DNA from: Deltaproteobacteria bacterium
Lineage (GTDB): Bacteria > Desulfobacterota > Desulfarculia > JACQYL01
Reading direction: 5' to 3'
DNA: 64,000 nt
NCBI GenBank assembly: GCA_016208165.1
Contig: JACQYL010000053.1
Span: 21,447 to 85,446 of the forward strand
Positions 10,472 through 62,660 of this stretch are shown here, piece after piece. Each line of letters starts with the position of its first letter. Within the stretch, counting starts at the first letter, position 1. The notes below the pieces were generated by a model. The model was given only the letters and a program-made list of their open reading frames with translations, was not told where the DNA came from and made no database searches. Made by a program: the position numbers and the translations under genes.

Positions 10472-10485
10472 TAGGAACTCTCGCC

Positions 10486-22394: not shown

Positions 22395-22403
22395 AAACTT
22401 ATG

Positions 22404-23000: not shown

Positions 23001-23013
23001 GTGGTGTCTCCTG

Positions 23014-25425: not shown

Positions 25426-25443
25426 ACCTCCCCCTCCTTATGT

Positions 25444-44530: not shown

Positions 44531-45886
44531 ATGAAACGTATCCTGTTGATTTCTTATTGTGGGCCGCCCAACGCGGCGGTGCCCACAAAGAGAATTTCCT
44601 TTTTTGCCCGTCATCTCGATGCCCTTGGATGGACGCCCACCATTATTTCTGCCCATCCGCGCTACGCGGAAGTCCGCGACGATTTTTTTGTCCGCATACT
44701 TCCACCCGGATGCCGCATTTACCACACGCCGTCCTTCGAACCCTTTCGAAGCCGTTTCGTGCATTCCCATTCGCCGATTCCCCCCTCGGGACAGGAAGCG
44801 CCAACCCATAACCACACCCTTCAGCGGCGTCTGGATTGGGTTCTACTCACCCTACGCAGGCTATTGTCCTACGGATATCCCGTCCAGGAGCCCCAGTGGG
44901 GATGGAACCATTTCGTATTGCCCCGTGCTCGCGAACTGATTCGCACAGGCCGATTTTCCGTGGTTCTGGTTTCGCTTCCGCCGTTCTCGTCCATGCTCGC
45001 CGGGTATGCGCTCAAGAAGGAGTTCGGGATAAAGCTTGTGCTGGACTACCGGGATCCATTTCACCAGGTGCAAAATGGAGCCGTTGCTCCGTTCATGCGA
45101 TCGAGAAAGTATTCTCTCCGGGCCCGCCGACACATCCTGCTCGAGAATCGAGTACTTTCGGCCGCAGACGGCATCCTGGCGGCCACTTCCAGGAGCACGC
45201 AGCAGTTCAGGGACCGCCTCGGGCCCGAATTCAACGCCAGAACAAAAACGATTACCAACGCCTTTGATGAAGATATTCTCGACACCATACCGGCCAAACA
45301 CTTCGATCGCTTCACCATTATCCATGGTGGTTCCCTGCACGGTCCGCGCATCGAGGGACTGAAGCTGCTCGATGCCTTGGGCCGGCTGCTGAGGAGCGAG
45401 GCCGTGGCGCCGGATGCTTTCCAGGTGCTGCTCTTTCCCGGGACATTACCCGATTTTCATAAGGAACGAAGGCTTCGAACTCTATTGGATCGCTTCCCGG
45501 AACTGAACGCTGTGACGCGTTTCATGCCCTATTTGGGATACTACGACTACATAAGCTACGTAAAGGGCGCGGATCTGCTTTTCCTCGCATCCGGTCCCAT
45601 GAAAGAGATGATTCTTGCCAAATTCTACGATTACCTGGGAACGGGCCGTCCCATACTTGCTCTGGCCGATCCGGACAGCGCAATGGCCGACATTATAAAC
45701 CGGACCCGTTCGGGTGTCGTGATTCCCTACAACGAACTCTCCCTGCTGAAAATCACCATCCGGGACTTAATCAATCGGATCCGGCCTTCCGTCCGGACGA
45801 ACTCTCGATACGCTTCCGGATTCACGGCATCGAGCACTGCAAGCGATCTTGCCGCATTCCTGGATCGCATCGTTGGTCTCAGCTGA
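44531..45886 (+). CDS. GT-B fold glycosyltransferase (GT4-like)
   Basis: N-terminal ILLISYCGPPNAAVPTKRISFFARHLDALGW and C-terminal nucleotide-sugar-binding-like region. Assignment by general pattern only. Confidence 0.45.
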   Translation: MKRILLISYCGPPNAAVPTKRISFFARHLDALGWTPTIISAHPRYAEVRDDFFVRILPPGCRIYHTPSFEPFRSRFVHSHSPIPPSGQEAPTHNHTLQRRLDWVLLTLRRLLSYGYPVQEPQWGWNHFVLPRARELIRTGRFSVVLVSLPPFSSMLAGYALKKEFGIKLVLDYRDPFHQVQNGAVAPFMRSRKYSLRARRHILLENRVLSAADGILAATSRSTQQFRDRLGPEFNARTKTITNAFDEDILDTIPAKHFDRFTIIHGGSLHGPRIEGLKLLDALGRLLRSEAVAPDAFQVLLFPGTLPDFHKERRLRTLLDRFPELNAVTRFMPYLGYYDYISYVKGADLLFLASGPMKEMILAKFYDYLGTGRPILALADPDSAMADIINRTRSGVVIPYNELSLLKITIRDLINRIRPSVRTNSRYASGFTASSTASDLAAFLDRIVGLS

Positions 45887-47297
45887 TGTCGCCTCCAAAC
45901 GTTCAAGAGGGTAATTTTTCCGTCCGAGTCTTGGCCTATTTCGATAAGCTTTTCCCCCCCGGTTCGCTCCGTGGACCCACAATTAAAGGCGGCGTCTGGA
46001 CCCTTGTCTCCCTATCCCTTACCGGCCTGTTGGGCGTGGGATCGGGAGTCGTTCTCGCCCGCCTGCTGACCCCGGAGATTTTCGGTCTGGTGGGTGTCGC
46101 CCTCGCTACGGTGGCCATATGGGACGGTCTGACAAACCCGGGCGTGTGGCAGGCCTTGATTCAGAGATCCGACAACGTCGAGCCTTATCTCGATACCGCC
46201 TGGACCCTGCAGGTCGGAAGGGGCGTTCTGCTCTGTTGTTTGACTTTTTTCGGCGCGCCCTGGTTGGCGGCTTTTTACAACAATAACGAGCTGATTCCTC
46301 TTCTCAGAGTCCTATCTGTAACCTTTCTGATGCGTGGGGCTTCGAACCTATCCATGGTCGAATTGAATCGCGACATGCGGTTTCGAAGACTGGCGCTGTA
46401 TAATCAGATAACAGGGTTTGTCTCCATCTGTATTCAGGTCATTCTGGTCGTCCTGTTGAGAAACGCATGGGCTCTTGCGCTGGGGGCCGTTTCTTCAAGT
46501 TTGATACGATGTGTAGGATCATACGTTGTGATCCCAAGACTGAACCGTTTTGGGTGGGAATGGGCCAAGGCGCTCCCGCTGCTCCATTTCGGCAAGTACA
46601 TCTGGGGTTCGAGCCTTGTGTTTTTCCTGCTCTCGTGGGGCGACCGTGTATTCATAGGCCGAATGGTGGGCGAAAAGGAGTTGGGATTCTACGTCTTCGC
46701 TCTTTCCCTGGCCTACATATTTTCTGGGCCTCGATGGCGATTCTACCCTATGCGGGACTGATGGCCGTTCTGGCGCCTGATGTGGTCGCGTACATATATG
46801 GGACCAAATGGATCCAAGCCGTGCCCATCCTCAGAATCATGCTCGTCATGGGAGTGGCTTCAGCCTTTTCCGCCATAACCTACCCCCTTTTCAGAGCTGT
46901 CTCCCATCCGCGTCTGGATTTCCGGATGAATGTCGTATTTCTGGTGGTGGCGGCCGTCCTGATAGTGCCTTTCACCATGAAATACGGAATAACGGGAGTG
47001 GCTTTGGTGATGAGCATAGGGGCCTTGATCCGAGCCTTGGTAGGCTTTTTTTATACGCGTTCCTTGATTGGGATCTCGTTTGCCGCCCTGTTCGGCCCAC
47101 TGTCGGGTCTTCTCGCCGGGTCCATTCTCGCCGCGGCAGCGGCATGGCTGATCCGGTGGCGCCTGTTCGGAGATTCGGCGTGGTGGGCGCCGGCCGCCGC
47201 ATTGGCCCTGGCCCTGGTGCTTTACTTGGCCGTGGCGTTCTGGTGGTTTCTCCACGTGAGATCGGCGGAAAAACATCGGGAGGCTGGAACGGTTTGA
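45886..47297 (+). pseudogene. wzx: Wzx-type oligosaccharide flippase (MOP/polysaccharide biosynthesis protein) interrupted by a frameshift near 46720
   Basis: Two overlapping ORFs (45886-46761 and 46467-47297) are both multi-TM. They join into one about 470-aa Wzx-like protein if one frame change occurs around ...AYIF|WASMAILPY (46715-46725). Either a real pseudogene or a sequencing indel. Confidence 0.6.
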
Positions 47298-48391
47298 ACA
47301 TCACCGTCGGTCTGATAACCCGCAATCGGGCGCGCCCGCTCTAGAACTGCCTCGAAAGTCTATCGAGACAGCAGCTACTCCCGGAAGAAGTGATTGTCGT
47401 GGACAATGGGTCCGGCGACTCAACCGCCGATGTGGCGCGTTCCTTCGCCCGGAAGCTTCCGCTGCGTCTCTTCTCCGAAGCACGGCCCGGTATTCCCCGG
47501 TGTCGTAATCGTTGTCTGCGGGAAGCCCGAAACCGGGTATTGGCCTTCACGGACGATGATTGCAAGGTTCCTCCGGACTGGATCCAGAGGATCGCAACCT
47601 ATCACGAGGCCTATCCGGGCGCTGCGGCCATCGGAGGCCCGGTAGTGAACGGCGCCCCGGGCCTTCTGGGTGAGACCAATCAACGGATGTGGGAAAGCTG
47701 GTTATGCGCCTATCGGGAGGCGCCAAAATCCGGAACGTCGGATATCCGTTTTCGGACACCGGCCAGGATTCCACATGTCTTGAAAAGGCCCGCTCAAGTG
47801 CGGAGTCTGTTCACAGCCAACTGCTCGTATAAAGTGGTTTCGATCAGGCGCATCGGCGGTTTCAATGAATCACTGCTGACCATGTCGGACGAAGAATTGA
47901 ACTGGCGCCTCTGCAACTCCGGAGAACGGTTACTGTACATACCGGACATGCCCGTAGTTCATGCCCACCGTGGCGCTATTGCGTCCTTTATCGAGCAGCA
48001 TTTCCGGTACGGCATCGGGTTTTACCAGACGCGCACGCTGCATCCCGGTATGCCGGGTATTCTGCCTCGATCCACACTCGTTTCGGTATGGATGTTTCCA
48101 ATCCTCGCTCTGACACAAGCCTTGTTCAACGCAGGCGTCGCAAGGCTTTCGTGCAAAACGCTTCCCCTGGCGGTTTTGATGTGGATCGCAGAAACGGCGT
48201 TCCGTACCGGAGCCCTCTATGCCGGTACGGGGCATCGGAGGGCGGTCTTTTTACCGGCGCCCCAACCCGCTCCATCGAGGACGAGTGCGCCGTCCGCCCA
48301 CTCCCACTCGATGGCGGCCTCTCCCAAAGGCGACACAGAGAAGACACTGTCCTGTATCGCGCCGGGTCCCACTTCGAGAGGCAAGCTGTAA
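47294..48391 (+). pseudogene. GT2-family glycosyltransferase with an in-frame TAG (47342-47344) in the conserved N-terminal strand
   Basis: Same reading frame gives LNITVGLITRNRARPL-[TAG]-NCLESLSRQQLLPEEVIVVDNGSGDST, i.e. the canonical GT2 start (I.V.IPTYNRA..L..CLESL..Q.....E.IVVDNGS.D.T) with an amber codon replacing one residue. The ORF finder only reports the part after the stop (GTG at 47390). Confidence 0.6.
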
Positions 48392-50214
48392 AGCAGCCGG
48401 CACGGACCGAGGGCCGTCGCGCCCGGGACCGCCTTAGACCATCCCGGCCCGGGTTTATCGAAACGGATCCGAACGCCGCGCCCCGAACTTCCCCACACAA
48501 TTTCATGGTCTCGATATTCCCAGTCCGGGAACAACCGCAGAATGACCGGGCGCCATGTCACGGGAATTCCCGAGCTGTTTGTCAGACGATCCCAGAACAC
48601 AACGGTAAAGGGACTTGCCGAGACGATCATGGTCCGTTTCAGTATGGGTAGGGCAGGCCCCGAGATCCGCGCCGCACGGTAAAGAAAGGGACCTGATCCG
48701 AGCATTCGAACGAACTCTTCGACATGAGCTTTTCTGAAGCGCGGTCTCCTTAGATAACGGATAACGGTCCGTTGAAAGCGCCTCCAAGGGTTTTTGGTCT
48801 GGAATTCAGCCTCCCCCTGAAGGATCAAAGCACGATCATCCAATGCCCGGATTCGAATCCGCCTCCAGGTGTATGGATGATACTCCCGGCCCTCCGCGTT
48901 CAGGCTGGGAACGAAACCGGGACTCGCCAGGTTTTCGTCGTCCATTGGCTGGACCGGAGGTGGGGGGATGAGTTCTCGGCCGCGCGCCCGTAGAGAGATC
49001 AGATTCATTCCTGAAAAGCGGGGATCGAGTTCGAAATCGGGAAGGCTCTTTTGTCCCTGCAGGGACACGACGGCGCGACCGGCTCCGGAGTCTGAAAGCA
49101 ATAGCCCGGCTCCTAAAGCGACGAAAGTTCGAGGGGGTGTCCCGGAAACGGATGGGGGTTCCGATCGAATGGATCCCGGCGCTCGAACCGACGGATCCAA
49201 CAGCAACGCAGCGGCGAACGCATTGTATACCGTGTGATGCATGTAAAAGTCCCAGGAACTCTTGTCGCCACCGGTTGAACCCGGATTCAGAAGAACGCTC
49301 CCATCCGTAAGTTGAAGCTTCTTCAATTGATCCCCAACACGAAGCCCGGACCGCACCCATTCGCCGGTCCGTCCGGCAGCGCTCGGTTCACCGGATTCTT
49401 TCAGCTCTCGGGCCGCTCTCAGGAGTGTGTTCGCGGCAGTAGCAAGGCCAAACAGGCTGTGGTTGCTCCTTCCGTACGCAGCAATCTTTCCGTCTTCATC
49501 CACCAGGAACGCCAGGAGGTCAACGCCGCGCATCAAGGCTTGCCTGACCATAGGATCGTTCATGAACGGAAGGGCTTCCAGCAGAAAAAAGCAGCTAGCC
49601 GCATGATAGGTGAGGGGCGTCAGACGCTCCTGAAAACGGCGGCCGGGATTGCGGGGAAAATCGGCGAACAAGCCATCTGCATCCTGCCAACGCAATGTGT
49701 ACCGTTGGATCAGTCGCCGTCCCCGGTGAGTGTATCTCTGGGATCCTCTGATGCGCCCCAGAAGAAGGTGGTCCACCGCTTTAAGGGTAACCCAGTTATT
49801 TCCGTGAACAGTGTAGCGTCCTGAATCAAATCGCGGCTGAATCAGCCGATTCAGACGCCTTTTGAACGAAGCGTCCGTTTCAGGTGATACTTCCGCTCCC
49901 CCGGGCCACTCCATCCATGACTTGAGAAATGCATATTGAACGAACTCCCGATGGCCTTTGCCGGCCTCGGGCAGCCGGACCAGATGATCCAGGACGCCGA
50001 GCAGGGAATGCAGTATTCGATCTGTACCGTTCAGTCGGAAGAACCGGACAAGCGCAAGGGCGAAAAAGGCGTTTGCGCAATTCCCATCCGGAGTTGGAGC
50101 ACCGTCCCACTCGTCATACAGAGTTCCGGACGGTAGCCGGCGCCGAAGGAGATACCGAGTAATGTCTTCACCAATGGGAAATAATGGGCTGGTCGCGGCG
50201 GAAGAGTACATCAC
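48217..50214 (-). CDS. Hypothetical protein, possibly heparinase II/III-like polysaccharide-modifying enzyme
   Basis: Long ORF with coding-like composition inside a glycan locus. Family assignment is a weak impression only. The last about 60 codons overlap the convergent GT2 gene and look non-native. Confidence 0.3.
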   Translation of the reverse strand: MMYSSAATSPLFPIGEDITRYLLRRRLPSGTLYDEWDGAPTPDGNCANAFFALALVRFFRLNGTDRILHSLLGVLDHLVRLPEAGKGHREFVQYAFLKSWMEWPGGAEVSPETDASFKRRLNRLIQPRFDSGRYTVHGNNWVTLKAVDHLLLGRIRGSQRYTHRGRRLIQRYTLRWQDADGLFADFPRNPGRRFQERLTPLTYHAASCFFLLEALPFMNDPMVRQALMRGVDLLAFLVDEDGKIAAYGRSNHSLFGLATAANTLLRAARELKESGEPSAAGRTGEWVRSGLRVGDQLKKLQLTDGSVLLNPGSTGGDKSSWDFYMHHTVYNAFAAALLLDPSVRAPGSIRSEPPSVSGTPPRTFVALGAGLLLSDSGAGRAVVSLQGQKSLPDFELDPRFSGMNLISLRARGRELIPPPPVQPMDDENLASPGFVPSLNAEGREYHPYTWRRIRIRALDDRALILQGEAEFQTKNPWRRFQRTVIRYLRRPRFRKAHVEEFVRMLGSGPFLYRAARISGPALPILKRTMIVSASPFTVVFWDRLTNSSGIPVTWRPVILRLFPDWEYRDHEIVWGSSGRGVRIRFDKPGPGWSKAVPGATALGPCRLLYSLPLEVGPGAIQDSVFSVSPLGEAAIEWEWADGALVLDGAGWGAGKKTALRCPVPA

Positions 50215-50217
50215 ATC

Positions 50218-51318
50218 CTACCACACCCCGAGATTCCGGTTCAAAACAGGGATTCGGCAGATTCTTCTTCTCAACAAGGGCATGTGGTATCGGGTGAGGA
50301 CCCTTGGAAGGTCAAGCCATGACCGCGCTGCCATCCATTGCCAATCCACGTTCGGACTCGAACGCCATGTGGTGGAACACTCCGAACATGGCGAAGGCAG
50401 TCCCTCCGGTCCGGCCATCAGCCGACCACGCAATTCCCTCATGGCGGATCCATTCCACACGTCCATCAGGCCGTGTCGGGTCACGTCTCCACCCGGATAT
50501 TCGTTTCGATAATCCTGAAAACACGCCATGGCGCTGCCATCCCAGGTGATGGAAATGCCCGTGTAGGGTCTCAGACATGGAACGTACCGTTTCCCTCTTC
50601 GCGGGTCCGCCGCCGCTGAAGCTAGGCTTGGCAGTTTTTTCAGGCTCTCGGAATAGGACCCGGTCGAATGGATCGGGGCCGTGTAAATCCGGTCCACGGG
50701 CAGCCCCCTGAACAATTCAAGAAATCCCGGATCCGGATCTCGCCGGCTCGCGCGCGACTCGAACACCCGCACAATTTTGATGGAAACCATGGGTCCGGCC
50801 GAACCCCGTTTCTTCTTCATCCGAAGCAACCGAAGTATATTGGACAGCGTCTTTTCGTATTTGGCGCCACGGTGTATCCGCTCGTATTCGTCGGGAAATT
50901 CGCTGTCAAAACTGATCATCACGCTGTCCAGTCCGCTCTCCAGCAAGCCCCGAGATTTCCTTTCAGTCAACAACGTGGCGTTGGTATGCAAAAGCACCTG
51001 AGGAATCCCCGCCTCTTTGGCTTCCGTTATCATCCGGAACAGCTCCGGATGCAGCAAGGCTTCTCCCACGCCGTTTACCGTCAGGTGATGCACCTTTCCC
51101 CGGGCCTGACGGATCAAATGCGTGAATAACCGGCGCTCCATGTTTCCCGGCGGTCGACCCAATCCATAGTGGTGTGCGCATTTGATGCATCGGAGGTTGC
51201 ACCGGTTGGTGGTCTCCAGCCACATGGCGATCGGCGGGGTCGAGAGCTTTGTCCTGCCTGAACAGTACTGACGATACGCCGTGTTGTTCCTGTGTATGTA
51301 TCCAATCGTGTTTTTCAA
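50218..51318 (-). CDS. Radical SAM / SPASM-domain protein
   Basis: CNLRCIKC (CxxxCxxC) near the N-terminus. C-terminal Cys-rich auxiliary-cluster region (CLRPYTGISITWDGSAMAC...CSEC). Confidence 0.8.
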   Translation of the reverse strand: MKNTIGYIHRNNTAYRQYCSGRTKLSTPPIAMWLETTNRCNLRCIKCAHHYGLGRPPGNMERRLFTHLIRQARGKVHHLTVNGVGEALLHPELFRMITEAKEAGIPQVLLHTNATLLTERKSRGLLESGLDSVMISFDSEFPDEYERIHRGAKYEKTLSNILRLLRMKKKRGSAGPMVSIKIVRVFESRASRRDPDPGFLELFRGLPVDRIYTAPIHSTGSYSESLKKLPSLASAAADPRRGKRYVPCLRPYTGISITWDGSAMACFQDYRNEYPGGDVTRHGLMDVWNGSAMRELRGRLMAGPEGLPSPCSECSTTWRSSPNVDWQWMAARSWLDLPRVLTRYHMPLLRRRICRIPVLNRNLGVW

Positions 51319-51432
51319 GGATATCTTTTCGCTTTTTCGCCTTGCAGCCCGGACGCTTATGCCGGCATTCAGAGTCCCTACACATCCGCGGAAGCAGGAG
51401 GAAACCCCTAACCCAGTCGGGTGCGTGTCGCT

Positions 51433-52518
51433 CTAATCCGCGAGAACACCCTCCCGGCCTTTCCGAATGTCGGACTTGACCGTTTGATTCGAGCCACCGA
51501 CCTCGACACGCCCATCTTCCTGCATCCAGTTCAACAGCCGGTCAATACCCAGTTCCGGGGTCATGTGGGGACTAAATCCCAGTTCCGACCTTGCCCGATG
51601 AATATCATACCAGCGATCCCTGGTCAAAAGCCGTACTTGCTGAAAGGTCGGCAGGTATCCTTCGCCCGGAATGGAACGGCACCAAGACCGGCTCATACGG
51701 AAGCGGGCTTCCCCCAGACACGCCAGTGTCAGCAACAAGTTCTTCGGAACGGGGACGCATCCGGAAGCCATGCCCAGGTTCTTTCGAACGTGATCCAGCA
51801 ATTCCTGGAGAGTACAGGGCCTCGGGCCGGCCAGAGTATAAATCCGCCCCGAGGTTTTTCCGAGCAGACAGGCCTTCAGTAATCCATCCGCCAGGTCGCT
51901 CACCTCTATCAGATGCAGTCGATTCTTCCCATTGCCCGCGCAAAAGCAGACCGGCCTCGAGGCCATGCGGATAAGTTTGGGAATCAAACCATTCCTCTCC
52001 CGGGGGCCATACGTGAGCGCCGGACGGACAATGGTCACCGGCAGTCCTTGACGGGACGCCTCCAGGGCGCACCGTTCCGCAAGCAGTTTGGACACATGGT
52101 AATATCCTCCGGGAGCCGGTGGAACGGTCTCGCTTATTGGGCTTATTTTCGGCCATCCTTGCACGCCCACACTGCTCACCAGTATGAATTTCCGGGCGCG
52201 GAAACGCGCGGCCAGCTTAAGTAGTTCCCGGGTCAAACGCACATTGGCGTCCAGATACGTCTTAAAAGGCAACGGCCGTTCGCCCCTGAGAGCGCCCAAG
52301 TGCACCCAGACACCATCCGAGGGAAAACATCGATTCGGCCGTTCAACCCATTGGCCGCTTTCCGAGTCCCGTGTCCAAAAAAAAGCCGTTCCGGAATGGA
52401 ACCTGGCTTTAACGGGCGCCACTCCGTAACCGTTTTGCACCAACAGATCCAGGAAGTGACGAGCCACGAACCCTGACGATCCCGTCACTATCACTCGATC
52501 TCCGTCACTTGGTTTCAT
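51433..52518 (-). CDS. NAD-dependent epimerase/dehydratase (extended SDR)
   Basis: N-terminal Rossmann motif VIVTGSSGFVARHFLDLL. Y..K catalytic pair pattern (YHVSKLL). Confidence 0.85.
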   Translation of the reverse strand: MKPSDGDRVIVTGSSGFVARHFLDLLVQNGYGVAPVKARFHSGTAFFWTRDSESGQWVERPNRCFPSDGVWVHLGALRGERPLPFKTYLDANVRLTRELLKLAARFRARKFILVSSVGVQGWPKISPISETVPPAPGGYYHVSKLLAERCALEASRQGLPVTIVRPALTYGPRERNGLIPKLIRMASRPVCFCAGNGKNRLHLIEVSDLADGLLKACLLGKTSGRIYTLAGPRPCTLQELLDHVRKNLGMASGCVPVPKNLLLTLACLGEARFRMSRSWCRSIPGEGYLPTFQQVRLLTRDRWYDIHRARSELGFSPHMTPELGIDRLLNWMQEDGRVEVGGSNQTVKSDIRKGREGVLAD

Positions 52519-53296
52519 ACATCAGGTACCGGTGATGGGCCCACAGCGATTTCAGCCGGAGGGGCAAGTTTGAATTTTCTACGAATCCGAGGCGCTCGAC
52601 CCACTTCTTCTGCGCGGGGTCTTTACCCAGCAGATAGTCGAGGCTGCTCCACCGCCATCGTCTCATTGCATTGGCATCCGACCTCGGGAACAGCCGGCTG
52701 ACGGCCAGCCCTGTGTCGGGCCAGGGAGGACAATCCATCACCCCTTCCCGCACCAGCCGGACGCCGCTTCGGTAAAGGTTCTTCCTCACCAGATCCGCGC
52801 TCCCCCACAAGGCCTGATGCCTCTTAAAAAAGGAACGGTTCCACCCGAATCGCGCCCAAAGGTACCCCGCCTGAGTCAAATTGGGCAACACCAACAGCAC
52901 CACTTTGCGCGAAACGCGTACAAGTTCCTTCAGCAGCCGGCCAGGATCGGGCCAATGCCACAGCCCGTTGAAATTAAACGCGAGATCGAAGCTTTTCGAG
53001 CGAAACGGCAGCGATTCCCCGGTTCGCACCAGAACCGGACGTCTACCGAGTGCGATCCAGGAACGGCGGGCCGCATCGAGGACTCCCCATTCCATGTCCG
53101 CCAGTACTACGGCTACGTCCTTTTGGGCGAGAGGAACCGTGTTGATTCCGGCAATTCCGGACATACCGCGCACCGGGGCCTCCAGTACCCTGGAAAGGCC
53201 GTAGCTCGCATGGATGGAATCCAACAGATCCCACAGACGATGGCGCTCATAAACAGTTCCAAGACCCTCGTCCTGATTCGCGTGAGTCGAATCCAT
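52505..53296 (-). CDS. Putative SAM-dependent methyltransferase-like protein
   Basis: Weak class-I MTase-like pattern (FDLAFNFNGLWHWPD). Low certainty. Confidence 0.35.
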   Translation of the reverse strand: MDSTHANQDEGLGTVYERHRLWDLLDSIHASYGLSRVLEAPVRGMSGIAGINTVPLAQKDVAVVLADMEWGVLDAARRSWIALGRRPVLVRTGESLPFRSKSFDLAFNFNGLWHWPDPGRLLKELVRVSRKVVLLVLPNLTQAGYLWARFGWNRSFFKRHQALWGSADLVRKNLYRSGVRLVREGVMDCPPWPDTGLAVSRLFPRSDANAMRRWRWSSLDYLLGKDPAQKKWVERLGFVENSNLPLRLKSLWAHHRYLMYETK

Positions 53297-53300
53297 TCAC

Positions 53301-54374
53301 TCAAACCATCCCTAACCAGGCTTTGGACAATTTAAAAAAACCCGATGGGTGCATCAGGATATTCGTGAAGGCGGAGTTTGCCAGAGGGCAGGAACACGCA
53401 CGGTCGGCAATGCGCTTGCGAACCGATTGAGCCTCGGAGCGGTTCCACATGGCTCTAAAATCAAAGTCCCAATCCTGTAGTCTCCCCATGACCGACCCCT
53501 CCACGCAACAAGCCCAAACGGTTCCGTCCGCGTCCACATGGGCGGAGGCTCGCCCGGAATAACAGGGCAGGAGGCGGTTGTTGGGCTCGGGCTCAACAGC
53601 CAGCATATCGTAATAGCGCGCTCGCAAGGAAGCGGAAATACGGGAAAATCCGTCTCCCGCATGTTGAATCAGGTCCGCCTTTAACAGAGGAAGCGCCCCG
53701 CGGAGCTTTTCCGTATCGGGCTTTACATCCAATGGGGCATTCTGAAGCTCCCACCTTTCCTCTGCGATTTCCGTTAGGTAGTGATCCGGCTTCAAGGCCC
53801 GCAGAGACGGTGCAATTCGATCGATTCGATCCGAGTTGAGCGTCGAAATGACCGTGTGGATGCCGACCTTCAGGTTTTTGGGGCGGGCTTTCTGGATCCT
53901 TTGAAGGGTCTGAACCGCCCGCTCGAACGTTCCCGGGACTCCACGGATGCGGTCGTGAAGGTTGCCGATATCATCCAAGGATATGTTTGCCACGACTATG
54001 GTCTCCGGGCATGAGGCGGCAATGCGGACTGCGCGCTCCGCGGTCTCGGGAATGGTGGCGTTCGTGGGCAGATTGATCACCCTGGGACGGCACTTCCAAT
54101 AGAAAAGTTCGACGATGGTCTCCAGATCTTTCCTGAGGAAAGGTTCTCCTCCGCTGAACGTAATCCAGCGGGGCCATTTCCCAAGAGAAGAGGCCAGCCG
54201 GGAAATCTGTTCCAGCGACATCTCCGTACTGCAGCGGGTGGAGACCGAACACATCCGGCAGTGCAGGTTGCAGCGGTGCGTCAAGGATACCGTCAAGCTG
54301 AACGGAGGGGGAACGCGAAGCCCCATTCTATGGGCCATTCGGTGAAGCGCGATATAAGACAGGAGTCGGATCAT
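53301..54374 (-). CDS. Radical SAM / SPASM-domain protein (paralog of 50218-51318)
   Basis: CNLHCRMC motif. C-terminal Cys-rich region (CYSGRASAHVDADGTVWACCVEG...CSCP). Start ambiguous (54374, abutting the upstream stop, or 54398). Confidence 0.8.
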   Translation of the reverse strand: MIRLLSYIALHRMAHRMGLRVPPPFSLTVSLTHRCNLHCRMCSVSTRCSTEMSLEQISRLASSLGKWPRWITFSGGEPFLRKDLETIVELFYWKCRPRVINLPTNATIPETAERAVRIAASCPETIVVANISLDDIGNLHDRIRGVPGTFERAVQTLQRIQKARPKNLKVGIHTVISTLNSDRIDRIAPSLRALKPDHYLTEIAEERWELQNAPLDVKPDTEKLRGALPLLKADLIQHAGDGFSRISASLRARYYDMLAVEPEPNNRLLPCYSGRASAHVDADGTVWACCVEGSVMGRLQDWDFDFRAMWNRSEAQSVRKRIADRACSCPLANSAFTNILMHPSGFFKLSKAWLGMV

Positions 54375-55273
54375 GTTCTGGAAAGCTCGTCCAGACATTC
54401 TTTTGTGGTGGCTGAACGTTTCCATACCACATGAGAAGAGGGGAACCCCGTCATGTCCAAACGGCCCAGTGCTCTGCCCCACGCCTCGAGAAGCACGGCG
54501 AGAACCAGAAAAAGCCGGGAGCTCGCGGGAAAGGCACTGAACTCCTGAAGGAAGGCATGGAAGATGGTCCGGACATCAAACGTGGCCACACGATACCCCG
54601 TCTTCCGGTAAAAGTCCAAGTGTCCGCTATGGATGCGTCTTCTTTGCCTGAGAAAGTCCCTGATGGAAGTGGGGCCGTGATTCCAGATAATGGCTTCGGG
54701 CGCGTACACAAGGGTATATCCGTTCGACAGGAAGTGGTATTCGAGGGCCACTTCGTCCACCCAGGTCGTCTCCGGAATGGACGAGACTTTGGATACAAAT
54801 GCAACCACCTCGCCGAGCTTGGGCCGGATGGAAGCCATTCTATGGTGAAGCCGCCATTGCAAATGCACGGCATGGTTGACGGCCCCCTGTAAGGCGTTCA
54901 AAGGAACGGGGCGCCCTCCCGTCATGCCGACGCGCGGATCTTGAAAAGGCAAGATCAGTTTCTCGAATGCATCCGCGGCCGGCAGCACATCCGCACTCAC
55001 AAGAACTTGGATATCGCCCGTGGCTCGTTTCAGAAACTCGTTGACGGCGGACGCTTTCCCTGCACGACGTGGTTGGACGACAAGCTCGATCCGATGGTCT
55101 TCGCGGCTCAGAGCTTCCACGATTTCCACGGTACGATCCGTGCATCCGCTGGCCACAACCAGGATCTCGCTGATATAACCGGACTCGAGGCGCTGGTTAA
55201 GAACGGCCCGCAGCAGTCCGCCGATATTCTTGTCTTCGTTGTGAGCCATAACACCAACGCTTAATGTTGGCAT
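54371..55273 (-). CDS. GT2-family glycosyltransferase
   Basis: MPTLSVGVMAHNEDKNI...DxD-like region ILVVASGCTDRT. Confidence 0.8.
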   Translation of the reverse strand: MPTLSVGVMAHNEDKNIGGLLRAVLNQRLESGYISEILVVASGCTDRTVEIVEALSREDHRIELVVQPRRAGKASAVNEFLKRATGDIQVLVSADVLPAADAFEKLILPFQDPRVGMTGGRPVPLNALQGAVNHAVHLQWRLHHRMASIRPKLGEVVAFVSKVSSIPETTWVDEVALEYHFLSNGYTLVYAPEAIIWNHGPTSIRDFLRQRRRIHSGHLDFYRKTGYRVATFDVRTIFHAFLQEFSAFPASSRLFLVLAVLLEAWGRALGRLDMTGFPSSHVVWKRSATTKECLDELSRT

Positions 55274-56000
55274 GGTGAAACCTCCCCAAGCCTTTGAAGC
55301 GAAGCCTCAGAATGAGGAATATGGCTTCGAGAATCACTCCGACATGGAGTTTTGAACTGCCGCGAACCCGATCCGCAAAACGAATCGGAATCTCGGTCAC
55401 ACGGTATCCCTTCCTGCGCACCTGATGATTCACTTCTACCTGAAACACATATCCCAGTGATTCCAAGCCCTTCAGGTCCAGGCTCTCGAGCACTTGTCTT
55501 CGGAAACCTTTGAATCCCGAGGTGGCGTCCGTGCAGTAATCTCCGGTGATCAACCGGACGAACCAGGTAGCCATCCGGCTCAACACCAGCCGATGGAGGG
55601 CCCAGTTCTCCGTCTCGCCCCCTTTCAAGTACCGGGAACCCACCACCAAATCACTGTGTGAAAGCGCCTGTAGAAATGCCGGAATAGCTTCCGGCGCATG
55701 GGAGAAATCAGCGTCCATTTGAAGAATCTGCTCATAACCCCGATCCAATGCAAATCCGAATCCGGTGGCATAGGCGCGGCCCAATCCGTATTTCCATGGG
55801 CGGTGCAGCACCGCTACCTCGGCGTGGCGCGCGGCGAGTTCGTCCGCCACCCGCCCGGTTCCATCCGGCGAGTTGTCGTCCACGATCAGGATGTCAAGGC
55901 AGAGATTCAACCCAACGATGCGCTCAACGAGGGGAACAATGTTGCTTCGTTCGTTGAAGGTAGGGATGACTACAATGGTTTTGTGTGGCTGCAAATGCAA
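55197..56000 (-). CDS. Polyprenol-phosphate sugar synthase-like GT2 (dolichol-phosphate mannose synthase family)
   Basis: TIVVIPTFNERSNI...ILIVDDNSPDGT...DLVVGSRY typical of DPM1/GtrB-like enzymes. Confidence 0.8.
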   Translation of the reverse strand: MHLQPHKTIVVIPTFNERSNIVPLVERIVGLNLCLDILIVDDNSPDGTGRVADELAARHAEVAVLHRPWKYGLGRAYATGFGFALDRGYEQILQMDADFSHAPEAIPAFLQALSHSDLVVGSRYLKGGETENWALHRLVLSRMATWFVRLITGDYCTDATSGFKGFRRQVLESLDLKGLESLGYVFQVEVNHQVRRKGYRVTEIPIRFADRVRGSSKLHVGVILEAIFLILRLRFKGLGRFHHANIKRWCYGSQRRQEYRRTAAGRS

Positions 56001-56163
56001 TCCCCGGCGGTAACGCAGACTCCGGATTCAACGACAATAGACTGACCTTAACACGATACCGGAAAAGAGCGAAATCCGAAAGCCTATACTGGGTAGGTTC
56101 CGACAATCAGGCGTCCACGCCAAGATAGAAGAATCCTGGGTTACATCGAGATGCCGTGAGTGT

Positions 56164-56683
56164 TCACGCGTCTTTGACACAGGCGCCGGCCGGAAAATAC
56201 AGATCCACAATTCGATCCACTCTGTTCAGCCAGTCGCGGCGCGCCTCGATCGAGCTGGTCACCACCACGGTGTACATCTCCCGATAAAAGGTACGAACGC
56301 CGCAGAGGTCGAAAATGCAGTTCTTCCAAAGCAGTTGCAGCGGATCGCCGAAGGTCTCCCGTTCCCTTGCCGTGGGCGTGTTGGCCGTATTGAATACCAG
56401 AGCCGTCTGCGCCTTCAAGAGGCCCACCGGTACGCCTTCGCCGCCGTCGCCGTCGATGAACCGGTAGGCCACCCCGGGTCTGATGACACGATCGACCCAC
56501 CCTTTCAAAATGGCCGGCGGCTGGCCCCACCAGTTTGGGTGGACGATGACGATCCCGTCCGCCATAGAGGTCATGAACCATCGCACAATGACCGTTGCTC
56601 TCGATACGCGCGACCACGGTTTGTGCGATGGCGTGGTTGAAACTGCCTTTGGCCGGATGCGCCAATATGACCGAAATATTCAC
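56164..56683 (-). pseudogene. Flavodoxin-like-fold NAD(P)H-dependent oxidoreductase (Flavodoxin_2/NQO-like) with an internal out-of-frame deletion
   Basis: N-terminal part MNISVILAHPAKGSFNHAIAQTVVARIESNGHCAMVHDLY is in one frame. The central WW motif part ADGIVIVHPNWWGQPPAILKGWVDRV is in another frame, starting essentially at the same nucleotides. The about 30 residues normally between these motifs are missing. Confidence 0.55.
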
Positions 56684-56815: not shown

Positions 56816-58459
56816 TCAGAATTCGGGTTTTACCCGATCCAAGCGTACGGGAGTGGTCTGGATCTCCATACCCTGCGCTCCCTTCCGCAACACGATGTTC
56901 TTCAGCCAATTTCGATTGTCTTCCTCCGGGTAATCCACACGGAAATGCGATCCACGGCTTTCCGTTCGTTCGAGGGCGGCCCGGCAGACCATCTCGGCCA
57001 CAAGTCTCATGTTTTGAAATTCCATGAGCCTGATCAGATCGGCGGGGCTTGCAACGGCGATTCGGGACTCGAGATTCCCGAATCGTCTCAGGGCTTCTCT
57101 GAGATCGTCTTCCCGGCGAATGACGCCCGCCTTGTACCACATCAGTTCTTTTAATTCACGGGCCAGCCGTTTAGGACTCGATCCCTGTTCAGAACGTGCG
57201 TCTTCCAGCCGGGACTTTTCTTCTTTCACCGCCTGTCGAGGGACGGGTGACATCCCTATCTCCCTTGCCCGCTGGGCGGCTTTGCCTCCCACACGGGAGC
57301 CCATGGCAAATACCTCGGCCAAAGCGTTGCCGCCGAGGCGATTGGCGCCGTGCATTCCCGCCGCCGCTTCTCCGGCGACGAAAAGTCCGTTCAAACATGT
57401 TTCCCCGTGTTCATCCGTCGCCACACCCCCCATACAGAAATGAGCCGTCGGCGCCACCTTGAACGTTTTCCGCCCCTTCCACCACTGGGAGGGCAGAATT
57501 TGAGCGAGCTGACCGGCGATCTCCTCGGGAAGCGCTTCGAGATCCATGAAGACCCCGTTCCTCTCCCTTCCATCATCACCGATCTCTTTCATCACCAGCT
57601 GCGCCAGTTGATCCCTCGTCACCCGCAGAGGGTCCAACCCATTTCGCCTGAGGATATCCTCACCGGCCTCGTTCCGTAGAACCACGCCTGTCTGGGGCAA
57701 AATCTTCTCATACAGCACGAGCTGGTTCCCTCGTTCGCCCATGGCCGTTGGATAGAATTGGACGAATTCCATTTCCTTCAATGGAACCCCCAAATCGTAG
57801 GCCAAAGCGTGGCCGTCTCCCGCGATGCCGGGAGCGTTATTGGTGTTGAGGAAGATCTGTGCGTAACCGCCGGTGGCCAATACTATGGTCTTTGCCTGCA
57901 TGGTAAGGAACCTGCCGTCCGCAGTGACACCGGTCGCGCCACTCACTCGTCCGCCGGATGCCAGAAACCGGGAGACAAACACATGTTCCGCAACGCGGAC
58001 GCCCACCTTCCTTGCCCGGCGTTCGAGCGGCAAAACGAGGTCCCTGCCGATCCAGTTCTCTCCGTACACATGGCGGGGATAGCTATGCCCCGGGATTTGA
58101 AACACACGGGGTTTTTCTCCTTCCATTCCGAAACGCACGCCGCATTCTTTCAAAAAAGCAATCTCGGCGCCCACTTGCTCCACCATCCGGGCCACCATGG
58201 CCTGATCGTTCAGAAAGCGTCCGCCTATTACCGTATCGGTCATGTGAACGTCTCTTGTGTCGTCCGGTGTCCCCCATCCCGTGGCAGCTATAACGGACTT
58301 GGAAATGAAGGTATTCGCGGCGCGTCCCAATCCGGACTTGGAAACCAGAAGCACGTCGGCGTTCTCTGCTTTGGCGGCGATAGCGGACCTGAGGCCTGCA
58401 CCCCCGCCTCCGATGACCAGTACGTCGCACGAAAGCGTCTCTTGTCTCTCCAGGAGCAT
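56816..58459 (-). CDS. FAD-binding oxidoreductase of the succinate dehydrogenase/fumarate reductase flavoprotein family (SdhA/FrdA/NadB-like), stand-alone
   Basis: Dinucleotide-binding motif DVLVIGGGGAGLRSAIAA. Family C-terminal signature HFRVDYPEEDNRNW. No adjacent Fe-S or membrane-anchor subunit genes. Start taken at MLLERQ (58459). Confidence 0.75.
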   Translation of the reverse strand: MLLERQETLSCDVLVIGGGGAGLRSAIAAKAENADVLLVSKSGLGRAANTFISKSVIAATGWGTPDDTRDVHMTDTVIGGRFLNDQAMVARMVEQVGAEIAFLKECGVRFGMEGEKPRVFQIPGHSYPRHVYGENWIGRDLVLPLERRARKVGVRVAEHVFVSRFLASGGRVSGATGVTADGRFLTMQAKTIVLATGGYAQIFLNTNNAPGIAGDGHALAYDLGVPLKEMEFVQFYPTAMGERGNQLVLYEKILPQTGVVLRNEAGEDILRRNGLDPLRVTRDQLAQLVMKEIGDDGRERNGVFMDLEALPEEIAGQLAQILPSQWWKGRKTFKVAPTAHFCMGGVATDEHGETCLNGLFVAGEAAAGMHGANRLGGNALAEVFAMGSRVGGKAAQRAREIGMSPVPRQAVKEEKSRLEDARSEQGSSPKRLARELKELMWYKAGVIRREDDLREALRRFGNLESRIAVASPADLIRLMEFQNMRLVAEMVCRAALERTESRGSHFRVDYPEEDNRNWLKNIVLRKGAQGMEIQTTPVRLDRVKPEF

Positions 58460-58719
58460 GTCGGGATTCCTCTTCTTTTCGATCCTTCTGAAACCGGTTG
58501 GGTGAACAGCAAAGCGGCTTTCTATTTTCACAATTTAAGTTAGAGACTACAAGCGGATTTCTTCCGTCATTCCAAAAGAAGGCGTGCACCCCGGGGCCGG
58601 AGCGGCTTACGGGCGCCTGACGCCGAAAGAGGCTTTGACACGGTCAAGAAAAGCAAAGGCGAGTCATCAATGGAACAGGTCCGGAGGGGCCATACGGGCG
58701 ACGCCCATATTCATTTCGG

Positions 58720-58941
58720 CTAAGGCATGGCGATCGAGATCTCGCGCAGAAGTCTCAACGATTCTTGCGCTTCCTGTTCATCTACTTTGTGGATGGCGAA
58801 ACCCGCGTGTACGATGACGTAGTCCCCCACACACAATTGATCCATGAGCAGGGTGGAAATCTTCAACCGGTTCCCACCCATATCGACCTGCGCAAAATCC
58901 TGTTCAATTGAAATAATTCTGGCGGGTATTGCAAGGCACAC
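58720..58941 (-). CDS. hypC: Hydrogenase maturation factor HypC/HupF
   Basis: GTG start gives MCLAIPARIISIEQ..., the hallmark MCLAIP N-terminus. About 74 aa. Confidence 0.8.
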   Translation of the reverse strand: MCLAIPARIISIEQDFAQVDMGGNRLKISTLLMDQLCVGDYVIVHAGFAIHKVDEQEAQESLRLLREISIAMP

Positions 58942-58970
58942 TCTGCGACCTCCCCCTGCGGGCATGCGAA

Positions 58971-59522
58971 TCAGCACGCTTCCTCGTCCCCAAAGGGAAA
59001 GCAAATCCGACCTTCCCCGCGGTTTTCTTCCGTTTTCGTTTCTGGAAATATGCCCCAGCGTCCCAGTTGATCCAGGGCCAGTCGTTCCAACCGTTCAATA
59101 CTCTCTCGGACGGGCGGCGTCAAGCCGATGCCCCAGGGTTCGATATCCAGTGGTTCCACTCCCACAACCACGGTTTCAGGCCGCTCTCCGACGAGACCCG
59201 CCAAAGTGAGTGTTTCCATCAAATCCGTCTGATGAAGCGAGTTTTTGGCGCGTATGTGAAAAGGGAGGTCTTCGTACTCGAGCAAGTACGTATCCCCGGG
59301 CGTTCCCCGGTTTTTGACGGCATCGAACACCAGGAGGCGTTCGGTCTGCGTAACCACGGACAAGAGACTTAAACCCAGTGTACCGCCGTCCACGATTTCC
59401 ACATAATCCGGAAAGACATATTTCCTTTCGAAGCGCTGGGCCATGAATACACCGACGCCCTCGTCCTTTAACAGGACGTTTCCGACTCCCAAGATGGTGA
59501 TTTTGCGATGCAATGCGTTCAT
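58971..59522 (-). CDS. Hydrogenase maturation endopeptidase (HyaD/HybD/HupD family)
   Basis: ITILGVGNVLLKDEGVGVF...VDGGTLGLSLL conserved motifs. Start taken at MNALHRK. Confidence 0.85.
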   Translation of the reverse strand: MNALHRKITILGVGNVLLKDEGVGVFMAQRFERKYVFPDYVEIVDGGTLGLSLLSVVTQTERLLVFDAVKNRGTPGDTYLLEYEDLPFHIRAKNSLHQTDLMETLTLAGLVGERPETVVVGVEPLDIEPWGIGLTPPVRESIERLERLALDQLGRWGIFPETKTEENRGEGRICFPFGDEEAC

Positions 59523-59640
59523 CGTGCTTTCAGCCGTGTAAGAAGAGGATCTCACAAACAGCCGCCCCCGGCCTCCCCATTGGGTGGGAAAACATCATAA
59601 CCGGGGGCGACAAGATGAAATAATTTCACCAACGATCGAA

Positions 59641-61278: not shown

Positions 61279-61315
61279 GGGGTATCCTCCTCCTTTTCGG
61301 CATGATCGGCCTCGG

Positions 61316-62245
61316 CTACTTGGCTACATAAAAGGGAGTCATCTTATCCCAGAACTCGGGCTCGCTGCATCCGATGCAAGGATGCCCGGCTTCAATGGGC
61401 CAACTGATTCCCTGATTGAATTTGACCGTAGGACAGTTGTTATAGGTTTCCGGACCCTTGCAGCCGAGTTCGTACAGGCAGTAGCCGTTCAAGTGACCTG
61501 CGTCACCGAATTCCTTGGCGAAGTAACCTCCTTCGTAGCTGGCCCTTCGTTGGCAACGATCATGGATGGTTTGTCCATAGGCGAAAAGAGGACGACTCAA
61601 ATTGTCCAGTGCCGGAAGACTTCCGAGAACTATGGCATGGACAATGGTGGCCACCATGTTGATGGTGTTGGGTGGGCAACCCGGAATGTTGATGGTCTTG
61701 ATTCCCAGAGCATCCTGTATGGATTTTGCTCCGCTTGGATTGGGTTTGGCGGCCGGAAGTCCGCCGAAAGAGGCGCACGCGCCGACGCAGATCGTTGCAG
61801 CGGCCTTGCTGGTGATATCCTTCGCAATATCGATCATCGGCCTGCCCGCGATCATGCCGTAACCCTCTTTGGTGGGAAGGGCTCCGTCGATGATACAGAA
61901 AAACTTACCTTTGTTCTTCTCGGCGGTATCCATGAGCACCTCTTCAGCCTGGTGTCCGGCGGCCGCCATGATCGTCTCGCTGTAATCCAGGGAAATTACG
62001 TCCAAAATAAGATCCCCGATGCTCGGGTAAGTAGTGCGGATGAACGATTCCGCGCAGCCGGTGCATTCGGAAAACGCCAGCCAAATCACCGACGGTCTTG
62101 CGGCAGTCATTGCGTCAGCAACCTTTTCCGCCATGGTTACGGGAAGGCCGAGAGTTGCGGTAATCAATCCGCAATATTTCACAAAATCTCGCCGGCTAAT
62201 GCCCCGCTTTTCTGCATTCTGGCCCAGGATTTCATCCCTTGACAT
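61316..62245 (-). CDS. [NiFe] hydrogenase small subunit, Tat-exported (periplasmic)
   Basis: Twin-arginine motif GISRRDFVKYCG. Proximal/medial/distal FeS Cys pattern. Start taken at MSRDEILGQ (62245), preceded by an AGGAGGTG RBS. The longer ORF-finder N-terminus is probably not translated. Confidence 0.9.
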   Translation of the reverse strand: MSRDEILGQNAEKRGISRRDFVKYCGLITATLGLPVTMAEKVADAMTAARPSVIWLAFSECTGCAESFIRTTYPSIGDLILDVISLDYSETIMAAAGHQAEEVLMDTAEKNKGKFFCIIDGALPTKEGYGMIAGRPMIDIAKDITSKAAATICVGACASFGGLPAAKPNPSGAKSIQDALGIKTINIPGCPPNTINMVATIVHAIVLGSLPALDNLSRPLFAYGQTIHDRCQRRASYEGGYFAKEFGDAGHLNGYCLYELGCKGPETYNNCPTVKFNQGISWPIEAGHPCIGCSEPEFWDKMTPFYVAK

Positions 62246-62660
62246 TGCCCACCTCCTTGGTGAAGTTAGCTTTAGGAACAGATGCAACCGCAGTTTCGGT
62301 GCCGCAAGAAACCGCATCGCGATGTGACTTCGTGTTATCCGTCGGTTTTCCATCACCACCTTTACTGAATAGAATACGAAGCTGCGCAATATTGTATACA
62401 GGAAAGATCCGTTTATGGTCAATTAATTTGTGTTTAGACGAAAGGAGGGAAAATTGCAGGGGTGAGGTGGCCTATCAAGCCGGCTTTCTCTGAACCCGCT
62501 TCAAACTCCTTAGACGGGATAGTAACGGCAAATATTCAGGAATCGGCACTTCGGAATCATTCGTCCGCGGGAAGTCTCACGACCATGGATTCCGCGTGTC
62601 TGCGTTCGGCCGCACGGACACCGGCCCGATTACACTTTTTAGTATTTCAAAGGAGAGCCC

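Follow-up and report, generated by a model that had tools for sequence, protein, structure and literature searches.

Two probable twitch-type radical SAM enzymes in a putative glycan-tailoring locus of a deltaproteobacterium, one of them coupled to a glycosyltransferase across many phyla

The window analyzed here is a stretch of 64,000 nucleotides from a Deltaproteobacteria bacterium (assembly GCA_016208165.1, contig JACQYL010000053.1, positions 21,447–85,446 of the forward strand). It contains a minus-strand operon (48217–56000) in which two radical S-adenosylmethionine (SAM) enzymes, termed rSAM-1 and rSAM-2, are encoded among genes of glycan assembly. In order of transcription, the operon specifies a Dpm1-like glycosyltransferase of family GT2, a second GT2 enzyme (GT2_300), rSAM-2, a methyltransferase-like protein, a short-chain dehydrogenase/reductase (SDR), rSAM-1, and a protein of 665 residues (U665) (Table 1). 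The genes are tightly packed, with gaps of 3, 114, and 4 bp and several overlaps. A GT4 glycosyltransferase, a Wzx-type flippase, and a further GT2 enzyme (333 residues) are encoded on the plus strand and face the operon. The whole 10-gene unit (44531–56000) recurs, with gene order and strand kept, in two relatives (loci L001 and L002) at 42–85% protein identity, and its flanks differ between these genomes and the window. The original prediction, made from the DNA letters alone, had described two paralogous SPASM-type radical SAM enzymes flanking an epimerase and a methyltransferase-like gene, within a locus dominated by GT2, GT4, and GT-C transferases, a flippase, and a polyprenyl-phosphate sugar synthase. 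Pfam searches confirmed the two radical SAM genes (366 and 357 residues) and the two genes that they flank. The surroundings were described correctly in part: three GT2 enzymes, the GT4 enzyme, the Wzx-type flippase, and the Dpm1-like synthase are present, but a GT-C transferase is not. The sole GT-C signal in the window is a weak PMT_2 match at 33912–35123 (E = 2.2e-6), approximately 9.4 kb from the GT4 end at 44531.

Table 1. Genes of the locus, numbered from the first nucleotide of the window
Product	Position	Strand	Basis or remark
GT4 glycosyltransferase, 451 residues	44531..45886	+	Glyco_transf_4, Glyco_trans_4_4; kept in L001 and L002
Wzx/MOP-type flippase, in two reading frames	45886..47297	+	Polysacc_synt_3, E = 1.6e-52; PRK10459 matches both halves
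GT2, 333 residues, convergent with U665	47390..48391	+	Glycos_transf_2, E = 2.5e-15; kept in L001 and L002
U665, soluble protein of 665 residues, predicted (alpha/alpha) toroid and beta-sandwich fold	48217..50214	-	AlphaFold2 (AF2) model and Foldseek
rSAM-1, BtrN-like radical SAM enzyme assigned to the twitch type, 366 residues, TTG start	50218..51318	-	Pfam and family profile
Extended SDR (NAD-dependent epimerase/dehydratase/reductase family), 361 residues	51433..52518	-	Epimerase, E = 1.4e-27
Methyltransferase-like protein, 263 residues, non-canonical motif I	52505..53296	-	Methyltransf_11, E = 1.5e-9
rSAM-2, member of a large uncharacterized, probably twitch-type radical SAM family, 357 residues	53301..54374	-	Start most likely at M37 of a 393-residue open reading frame
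GT2_300, soluble or peripheral GT2 with cellulose-synthase-like motif set	54371..55273	-	Pfam Glycos_transf_2, Glyco_tranf_2_3, Glyco_trans_2_3
Dpm1/ArnC/GtrB-like polyprenyl-phosphate sugar synthase (GT2, 267 residues)	55197..56000	-	Match to 5mlz
Flavodoxin-like FMN reductase remnant, frameshifted	56141..56683	-	Flavodoxin_2 on residues 1–45 only

Both enzymes fall within the radical SAM superfamily (PF04055) on the combined evidence of the CxxxCxxC motif and a Pfam match. The motif reads CNLRCIKC in rSAM-1, which matches the Radical_SAM model with E = 3.4e-14 and the SPASM model with E = 4.5e-12. The open reading frame (ORF) of rSAM-2 (53301–54482, minus strand, with GTG at 54482) contains CNLHCRMC and matches the same models with E = 3.5e-16 and 1e-5; both Radical_SAM matches lie above the gathering score. 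The TTG start of rSAM-1 at 51318 is credible because its first 30 residues are conserved among homologues with 57–87% identity. For rSAM-2, alignment with relatives indicates that translation most likely begins at M37 (54374), giving 357 residues. This is the start in a 100% identical NCBI protein of that length (P0042, 'MAG: Deltaproteobacteria bacterium') and in 25 homologues, and it gives an ATGA stop/start overlap between GT2_300 and rSAM-2.

The two enzymes do not form a paralogous pair. Direct BLASTP comparison aligned 155 residues of their common core with only 25% identity (E = 6e-4), and the proteins belong to separate families that differ in size, context, and distribution. Nor is either a full SPASM enzyme, for which we required the seven cysteines of two auxiliary [4Fe-4S] clusters (Cx9–15Gx4C, gap, Cx2Cx5Cx3C, gap, C). 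The C-terminal region holds four invariant cysteines in the rSAM-1 family (C-x12-G-x4-C ... C-x2-C) and five in the rSAM-2 family (C271, C289, C290, C327, and C329). Since neither enzyme has the seven-cysteine motif, one auxiliary cluster is expected in each. The Pfam SPASM model still matches both because it also covers the twitch half of the domain. On its cysteine pattern, rSAM-1 is assigned to the twitch subclass, with a single predicted auxiliary cluster; rSAM-2 probably belongs to the same subclass, its five cysteines being compatible with one cluster.

The genomic context of rSAM-2 was surveyed by tblastn of the window proteins against fetched loci, of which 74 species loci were assessable. 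In 50 of the 74, GT2_300 shares the strand of rSAM-2 and lies no more than 150 bp upstream of it; in 10 more it lies within 3 kb. It is thus coupled to rSAM-2 in about 80% of species loci. An independent clustering of neighboring ORFs returned the GT2 as the only neighbor present in most loci (60/83). The pair spans Cloacimonadota, Firestonebacteria, Chloroflexota, Acidobacteriota, Saccharibacteria, Woesearchaeota, and Altiarchaeota. This conservation shows that GT2_300 and rSAM-2 constitute an ancient two-gene module that is translationally coupled.

The remainder of the cassette is less constant. The methyltransferase-like gene accompanies rSAM-2 in 16 of the 74 loci, and SDR, methyltransferase, and Dpm1-like GT2 genes occur in about 14–16 each. 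A woesearchaeote locus (L041) has the same order as the window (Dpm1-like GT2, GT2_300, rSAM-2, methyltransferase, SDR); a PF00953 (AglH/WecA-type) transferase gene and a flippase gene come after it, and two B12-radical SAM genes come before it. Cloacimonadota have the bare two-gene form, with no other tailoring genes. Genes for DUF362, B12-radical SAM, and LPG_synthase_TM proteins are the other recurrent neighbors of rSAM-2; the DUF362 gene adjoins the rSAM-2 cassette in 15 loci (e.g., L014:11056–12255 and L084:12089–13216). In locus L010, from a member of the Nitrospiraceae, HypF and an AIRS-domain gene (perhaps HypE) adjoin the GT2 and rSAM-2 genes, which is probably a coincidence.

The invariant residues of GT2_300 are D46, D95, D173, and Q210-R211-x-R213-I214 (QRxRI). 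This set is the D, D, D, Q(R)xRW-type signature that characterizes cellulose-synthase-like GT2 enzymes, which act on membrane-embedded acceptors. The closest solved relative is 6yv7, which we take to be the Pyrobaculum mannosyltransferase PcManGT.

The rSAM-2 family is large. It comprises at least 1193 clusters at E ≤ 1e-5, the best 120 of which share 37–46% identity over more than 80% of the length. A pattern scan of one genome per species gave at least 585 confirmed matches; as one locus can satisfy both patterns, this number is read as hundreds of species of anaerobic bacteria and archaea. The bacterial members come from Cloacimonadota, Firestonebacteria, Eisenbacteria, Chloroflexota, Calditrichota, Acidobacteriota, Syntrophobacteria, and Saccharibacteria, and the archaeal members from Methanomassiliicoccales, Woesearchaeota, and Altiarchaeota. 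None of the 26 members tested reached any curated NCBIfam cut-off. The nearest curated model is that of the PTO1314 family (TIGR03961), for which rSAM-2 scored 71 bits against a cut-off of 306 (best of the 26 members, E = 1.2e-23), and membership of that family was rejected. Among the top matches, only TIGR03961 and, at a lower score, TIGR04133 align nearly end to end. We found no mention of PTO1314 in the searchable literature; the one paper matching TIGR03961/TIGR03965 covers TIGR03965 alone. The twitch model NF033640 was matched with 61 bits, under its cut-off of 170. The AF2 model of rSAM-2 superposes on radical SAM structures, the top structural match being the peptide maturase SkfB, and the anaerobic sulfatase-maturating enzyme (anSME) is among its neighbors. 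Sugar- and nucleotide-acting radical SAM enzymes such as BlsE (cytosylglucuronate decarboxylase), DesII, viperin, and AprD4/AprD3 share only 14–20% identity with rSAM-2. They serve secondary metabolism or antiviral functions; rSAM-2, in contrast, is tied to a GT2 partner in primary envelope-type loci of many phyla.

The rSAM-1 family is modest in size, and the clade to which the window protein belongs is rare. A word-indexed search of 5.8 billion proteins yielded 41 relatives, only four of which exceed 50% identity; an exhaustive HMMER scan of 1.84 billion representatives yielded 248 clusters at E ≤ 1e-30. When a profile built from 24 members was compared with solved structures, the best match was BtrN (E = 2e-31) and the next was PqqE (E = 7e-15). 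BtrN is the 2-deoxy-scyllo-inosamine dehydrogenase of the butirosin pathway, a carbohydrate dehydrogenase. The four invariant cysteines of rSAM-1 align column for column with the auxiliary-cluster (twitch) cysteines of BtrN, and the profile also matches the twitch dehydrogenase SpeY (7wzv). With the single sequence, BtrN was matched at E = 1.9e-10 and in the twitch region only. What rSAM-1 shares with BtrN and SpeY is the CxxxCxxC core and a C-terminal twitch domain with four cysteines spaced by 18, 45, and 3. It differs from BtrN in that identity is about 25–30% and that it has approximately 100 residues more and includes an insert and a C-terminal tail specific to its clade. Furthermore, rSAM-1 is encoded in a glycan-assembly operon rather than an aminoglycoside cluster: the window has no 2-deoxy-scyllo-inosose synthase or aminotransferase gene. 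Orthology with BtrN was rejected on these grounds, and rSAM-1 is BtrN-like in function at best. The tail of the window clade (50218–50360, the last ~45 residues) carries RRxxC.P..NR with a fifth conserved cysteine and is absent from the wider family.

Several members of the rSAM-1 family are fusion proteins, joined to a PMT_2 GT-C domain (P0241), to a GT4 domain (P0306), to a giant assembly of GT4, GT2, and TPR domains (P0259), or to a B12-binding radical SAM domain (P0270). Six distinct contexts of distant homologues were examined. Four are glycan loci (L003, L091, L092, and L093), in which Wzx, Wzy_C, PMT_2, GT4, or acyltransferase genes occur; the remaining two gave no information. L093 contains, in addition to the rSAM-1-like gene, genes for a distant relative of rSAM-2, an LPG_synthase_TM protein, and an SDR. 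A B12-binding radical SAM gene directly precedes the rSAM-1-like gene in L091 (4685–6984) and L092 (3374–5676), and in L003 (2943–9032) such a gene heads a cluster of several radical SAM genes, two genes away from the rSAM-1-like gene. The combination looks like a second uncharacterized radical SAM pair for glycan tailoring.

The other products of the operon resemble enzymes of sugar metabolism. The Dpm1-like GT2 matches the P. furiosus dolichol-phosphate-mannose synthase 5mlz (E = 1.1e-35) and ArnC (E = 2e-10), as well as the NCBIfam models AglJ and PpgS. The SDR appears to be active, with intact GSSGFVA (GxxGxxG) and YHVSK (YxxxK) motifs; its solved relatives include UDP-glucuronic acid (UDP-GlcA) 4-epimerase (6zl6, E = 6e-13), MoeE5, and UDP-GlcA decarboxylase, and its top NCBIfam match is HpnA (87 bits, far under the cut-off). 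Conserved motifs of the methyltransferase-like protein are DEGLGTVYER, SVLE.P..G.TG, and AHHRY. U665, the 'heparinase-like' protein of the original prediction, gave no Pfam or NCBIfam match and has no hydrophobic segment or signal peptide. Only nine homologues were found, one of them fused to a GT4. Its AF2 model (predicted template-modeling score 0.80) was matched by Foldseek to a glycosaminoglycan lyase (8khw, E = 1.4e-9), alginate lyase, dermatan sulfate epimerase, and heparinase III, so that the modeled fold is of the polysaccharide lyase/uronyl C5-epimerase type. We also considered U665 as a GT-C candidate; a soluble protein with a predicted lyase/epimerase fold does not fit, and the idea was dropped. 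A distant homologue (P0169) occurs in an exosortase polysaccharide locus that has no radical SAM gene; a DUF362 gene (L094:1554–2921) adjoins a distant U665 homologue in an exosortase polysaccharide locus.

Two genes of the locus are interrupted. The frame of the Wzx flippase switches near 46692–46719, and the product lacks about 25 residues that the intact 504-residue L001 orthologue has; either the gene is a pseudogene or the assembly contains an indel. The FMN reductase gene shows a frame change near 56486–56568 relative to the intact gene of L001 and is absent from L002. Its product is possibly an accessory electron donor, and its membership of the cassette is uncertain. The convergent GT2 (47390–48391) and U665 (48217–50214) genes overlap by 175 bp, and the orthologous pairs overlap by 49 bp (L001) and 98 bp (L002); the last 50 residues of this GT2 are of low complexity.

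We consider it reasonably probable (roughly 0.6) that the locus at 44531–56000, with its approximately 10 genes, serves to assemble and modify a lipid-linked surface glycan or a glycolipid, and that both radical SAM enzymes act on carbohydrate and not on peptide. A sugar substrate is supported because BtrN is the closest solved relative of rSAM-1, because the family includes glycosyltransferase fusions, because rSAM-2 is coupled to GT2_300, and because peptide-side genes are absent. The original prediction had likewise preferred modification of a sugar or lipid-linked glycan to peptide or sulfatase maturation, and every comparative test that was run, on genomic and structural evidence, pointed the same way.

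The following scheme would account for these features. GT2_300 would transfer a hexose to an acceptor embedded in the membrane, which would be polyprenyl phosphate or a membrane lipid. The 5'-deoxyadenosyl radical generated by rSAM-2 would then abstract hydrogen from a C-H bond of the sugar; its single auxiliary cluster would handle the electron, and the spare conserved cysteine may donate a hydrogen atom. The product could be an oxidized, dehydrated, epimerized, or rearranged sugar. In a subset of lineages, accessory enzymes would extend this core: the Dpm1-like GT2 would make a polyprenyl-phosphate sugar, the SDR would reduce a keto intermediate, and the methyltransferase-like protein would methylate the sugar. 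Two further components would be lineage-specific additions. rSAM-1 would most likely oxidize a secondary sugar alcohol to a ketone in the manner of BtrN, and this step, combined with that of the SDR, could bring about a net epimerization or deoxygenation that needs no oxygen; for U665, the probable substrate is a uronate-containing glycan. The GT4, the second GT2, and the Wzx flippase would serve in assembly and export of the product.

Several observations weigh against this scheme. The acceptor, the sugar, and the type of reaction are all inferred from genomic and structural evidence. The structure search scored the peptide maturase SkfB and the sugar enzyme BlsE about equally for rSAM-2. The cassette of the window contains no GT-C, Wzy, or initiating phosphoglycosyltransferase; neither Wzy_C nor a PF00953/PF02397 initiating transferase was detected anywhere in the window, and both occur in related loci. 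PMT_2 is carried by the related loci L003, L009, and L092. As both the flippase and the FMN reductase genes are frameshifted here, partial decay of the locus or errors in its assembly are possible. A C-terminal amphipathic helix of rSAM-2 is weak evidence of membrane association: its median hydrophobic moment is 0.50, compared with a mean of 0.27 in the core, where maxima reach 0.7. In Calditrichota, rSAM-2 occurs without the GT2 and has a geranylgeranyl-reductase-like flavoprotein gene directly upstream instead (seven loci; e.g., L077:8747–9961). In an altiarchaeote (L009:2550–6077), the pair is flanked by two CrtI-like desaturase genes, PMT_2, and two small EamA-like genes. The neighbors in these two lineages could mean that the substrate is the isoprenoid lipid itself.

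If so, one or both radical SAM enzymes would modify an isoprenoid, polyprenyl, or other lipid chain by C-C coupling, cyclization, or methylation (compare Tes, Mss, Hbs, and GrsA/B), and the GT2 enzymes would only supply the head group. Besides the Calditrichota and Altiarchaeota loci, weak matches to the tetraether synthase Tes and to GDGT-MAS and the LPG_synthase_TM genes of several loci are consistent with lipid-tail chemistry. We nevertheless regard it as unlikely. The Tes and GDGT-MAS matches are limited to the generic core and are weaker than those to sugar-modifying enzymes. rSAM-1 matches BtrN through the substrate-side twitch domain. The known fusions of the family are to glycosyltransferases and none is to a lipid synthase. 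Moreover, the pair is present in Saccharibacteria and Woesearchaeota, which have reduced lipid biosynthesis. Maturation of a protein is a much poorer prospect. Here, rSAM-1 would modify U665 or the nearby PKD/NPCBM proteins in the manner of anSME, and rSAM-2 would modify its partner GT2. The rSAM-1 and U665 genes are 3 bp apart and occur together in all three close relatives (3/3), and anSME is a structural neighbor of rSAM-2. However, anSME needs the seven-cysteine SPASM domain with two auxiliary clusters, and the four or five conserved cysteines found here are too few. No anSME model appeared among the top NCBIfam matches, and no sulfatase-domain protein was found among the ORFs of at least 150 residues in the 64 kb window, so that identity with anSME, with a cognate sulfatase, was rejected. 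rSAM-1 relatives are found without U665, the distant U665 homologue P0169 occurs without a radical SAM gene, and U665 has no signal peptide. The suggestion in the original prediction that the heparinase-like or the PKD protein might be the object of maturation is disfavored by the occurrence of P0169 in a locus that lacks radical SAM genes.

A cluster for a ribosomally synthesized peptide that undergoes post-translational modification (RiPP) would have the radical SAM enzymes mature an unannotated peptide that the GT2 enzymes then glycosylate, as in the mycofactocin pathway (MftC/MftF). Three observations favor such a role: GT2_300 weakly matches the mycofactocin glycosyltransferase MftF (E = 4e-13, 49 bits against a cut-off of 280), SkfB heads the structural matches of rSAM-2, and locus L001, the relative with 85% identity, has a 96-residue PqqD-like gene and an ABC exporter approximately 6 kb upstream (246–2804). 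The last two genes are, however, absent from the window and from every other fetched locus. A scan of all intergenic gaps, which in the operon measure 3, 114, and 4 bp, gave no plausible small precursor ORF, in agreement with the original prediction, and no peptidase gene is present. Neither enzyme has an N-terminal (PqqD-like) peptide-recognition domain: the CxxxCxxC motif, with only about 30 residues in front of it, begins at residue 40 in rSAM-1 and 35 in rSAM-2 but at about residue 117 in SkfB, whose residues 1–100, the peptide-recognition region, have no counterpart in the alignment of either. The lack of a seven-cysteine motif, peptide-recognition domain, precursor, peptidase or exporter, and sulfatase separates the present enzymes from anSME, SkfB, CteB, SuiB, PqqE, and MftC alike. 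A role as RiPP maturases was rejected and must be considered very improbable indeed.

With a lipid-linked glycan or glycolipid as the preferred product, two known glycolipid systems offer parallels. In the HpnI/HpnK/HpnJ system of the hopanoid cyclitol ether and in that of a glycosyltransferase with calditol synthase (Cds) for the archaeal GDGT head group, a membrane lipid first receives a hexose from a glycosyltransferase, and the sugar is then altered in place by a radical SAM enzyme (PMC13459092). The likeness of GT2_300/rSAM-2 to HpnI/HpnJ and to the Cds pair lies at the level of gene-pair logic only. Cds and HpnJ are radical SAM enzymes that contract the sugar ring, and HpnJ belongs to the class with a B12-binding domain. 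Membership of the window genes in a hopanoid pathway was considered and dropped, as the HpnA, HpnB, HpnH, and HpnI models all scored far under their cut-offs. In the searchable literature, mention of Saci_1489 (Cds) was found only in a review (PMC13459092). By analogy with these systems, GT2_300 and rSAM-2 might be the counterpart, in bacteria and in archaea and bacteria of the DPANN and candidate phyla radiation groups, of the glycosyltransferase with calditol synthase or of HpnI/HpnJ. A hexose on a lipid or polyprenyl carrier would be rearranged, by ring contraction or another change of the carbon skeleton, to a head group that resists hydrolysis, whether carbocyclic or of another kind without precedent, and that would be widespread in anaerobes; in the present locus, the BtrN-like rSAM-1 would add a further oxygen-independent oxidation or epimerization directly on the lipid-linked sugar. 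We offer this more specific proposal as a speculation that is distinctly unlikely to be correct.

A second set of parallels is provided by modifications of polyprenyl-phosphate sugars, among them the three-component pentofuranose systems (PMC11127046). Like ArnC/ArnT, GtrA/B/C, DprE1/E2 with a GT-C, and the pentofuranose systems, the operon combines a Dpm1/ArnC-like GT2 with redox enzymes for sugar tailoring, an SDR among them. A PMT_2 GT-C and small EamA-like genes are found in related loci, and one rSAM-1 relative is fused to PMT_2. The known systems, however, use NAD- or FAD-dependent enzymes and not radical SAM enzymes, and the cassette of the window has a Wzx-type flippase in place of a GT-C or small flippase.

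Elsewhere in the window, the minus-strand region at 20097–28525 encodes MtrC/OmcA-like multihaem cytochromes, a porin-like protein, ApbE, an FMN_bind protein, and a cytochrome b561-like protein, and resembles an extracellular electron-transfer conduit. A fumarate-reductase-like flavoprotein gene (FAD_binding_2 and Succ_DH_flav_C) precedes the glycan cassette; directly upstream of it, within 56816–62422 on the minus strand, are genes for the small and large subunits of a NiFe hydrogenase and for a HycI protease. Genes of the arginine succinyltransferase pathway (AstA, an aldehyde dehydrogenase, and AstB) are located at 9443–13313 on the plus strand. A promoter and terminator scan gave sites no more frequent than expected by chance, and Rfam and tRNA scans of the window returned nothing.

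To our knowledge, nearly all known twitch radical SAM enzymes with sugar substrates come from antibiotic pathways (BtrN, SpeY, NeoN, AprD4, and BlsE). HpnJ and Cds add two cases of lipid head groups. We found no relevant description of radical SAM enzymes in polysaccharide or polyprenyl loci in the searchable literature. Sugar modification by twitch enzymes is already known; the coupling to a GT2 in envelope-type loci across many phyla is covered by no curated NCBIfam model, and no paper on it turned up in the searchable literature. The pair is kept in species-representative genomes of hundreds of anaerobic bacteria and archaea, among them Saccharibacteria and Woesearchaeota with their reduced genomes. 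The enzymes described here are found in what appears to be primary assembly of a cell-envelope glycan or glycolipid. Should GT2_300 and rSAM-2 together modify the sugar of a lipid-linked substrate in an oxygen-independent way, this would represent a new and widespread envelope biochemistry, would add a reaction type to radical SAM enzymology, and might provide a new lipid or glycan biomarker of anoxic environments.

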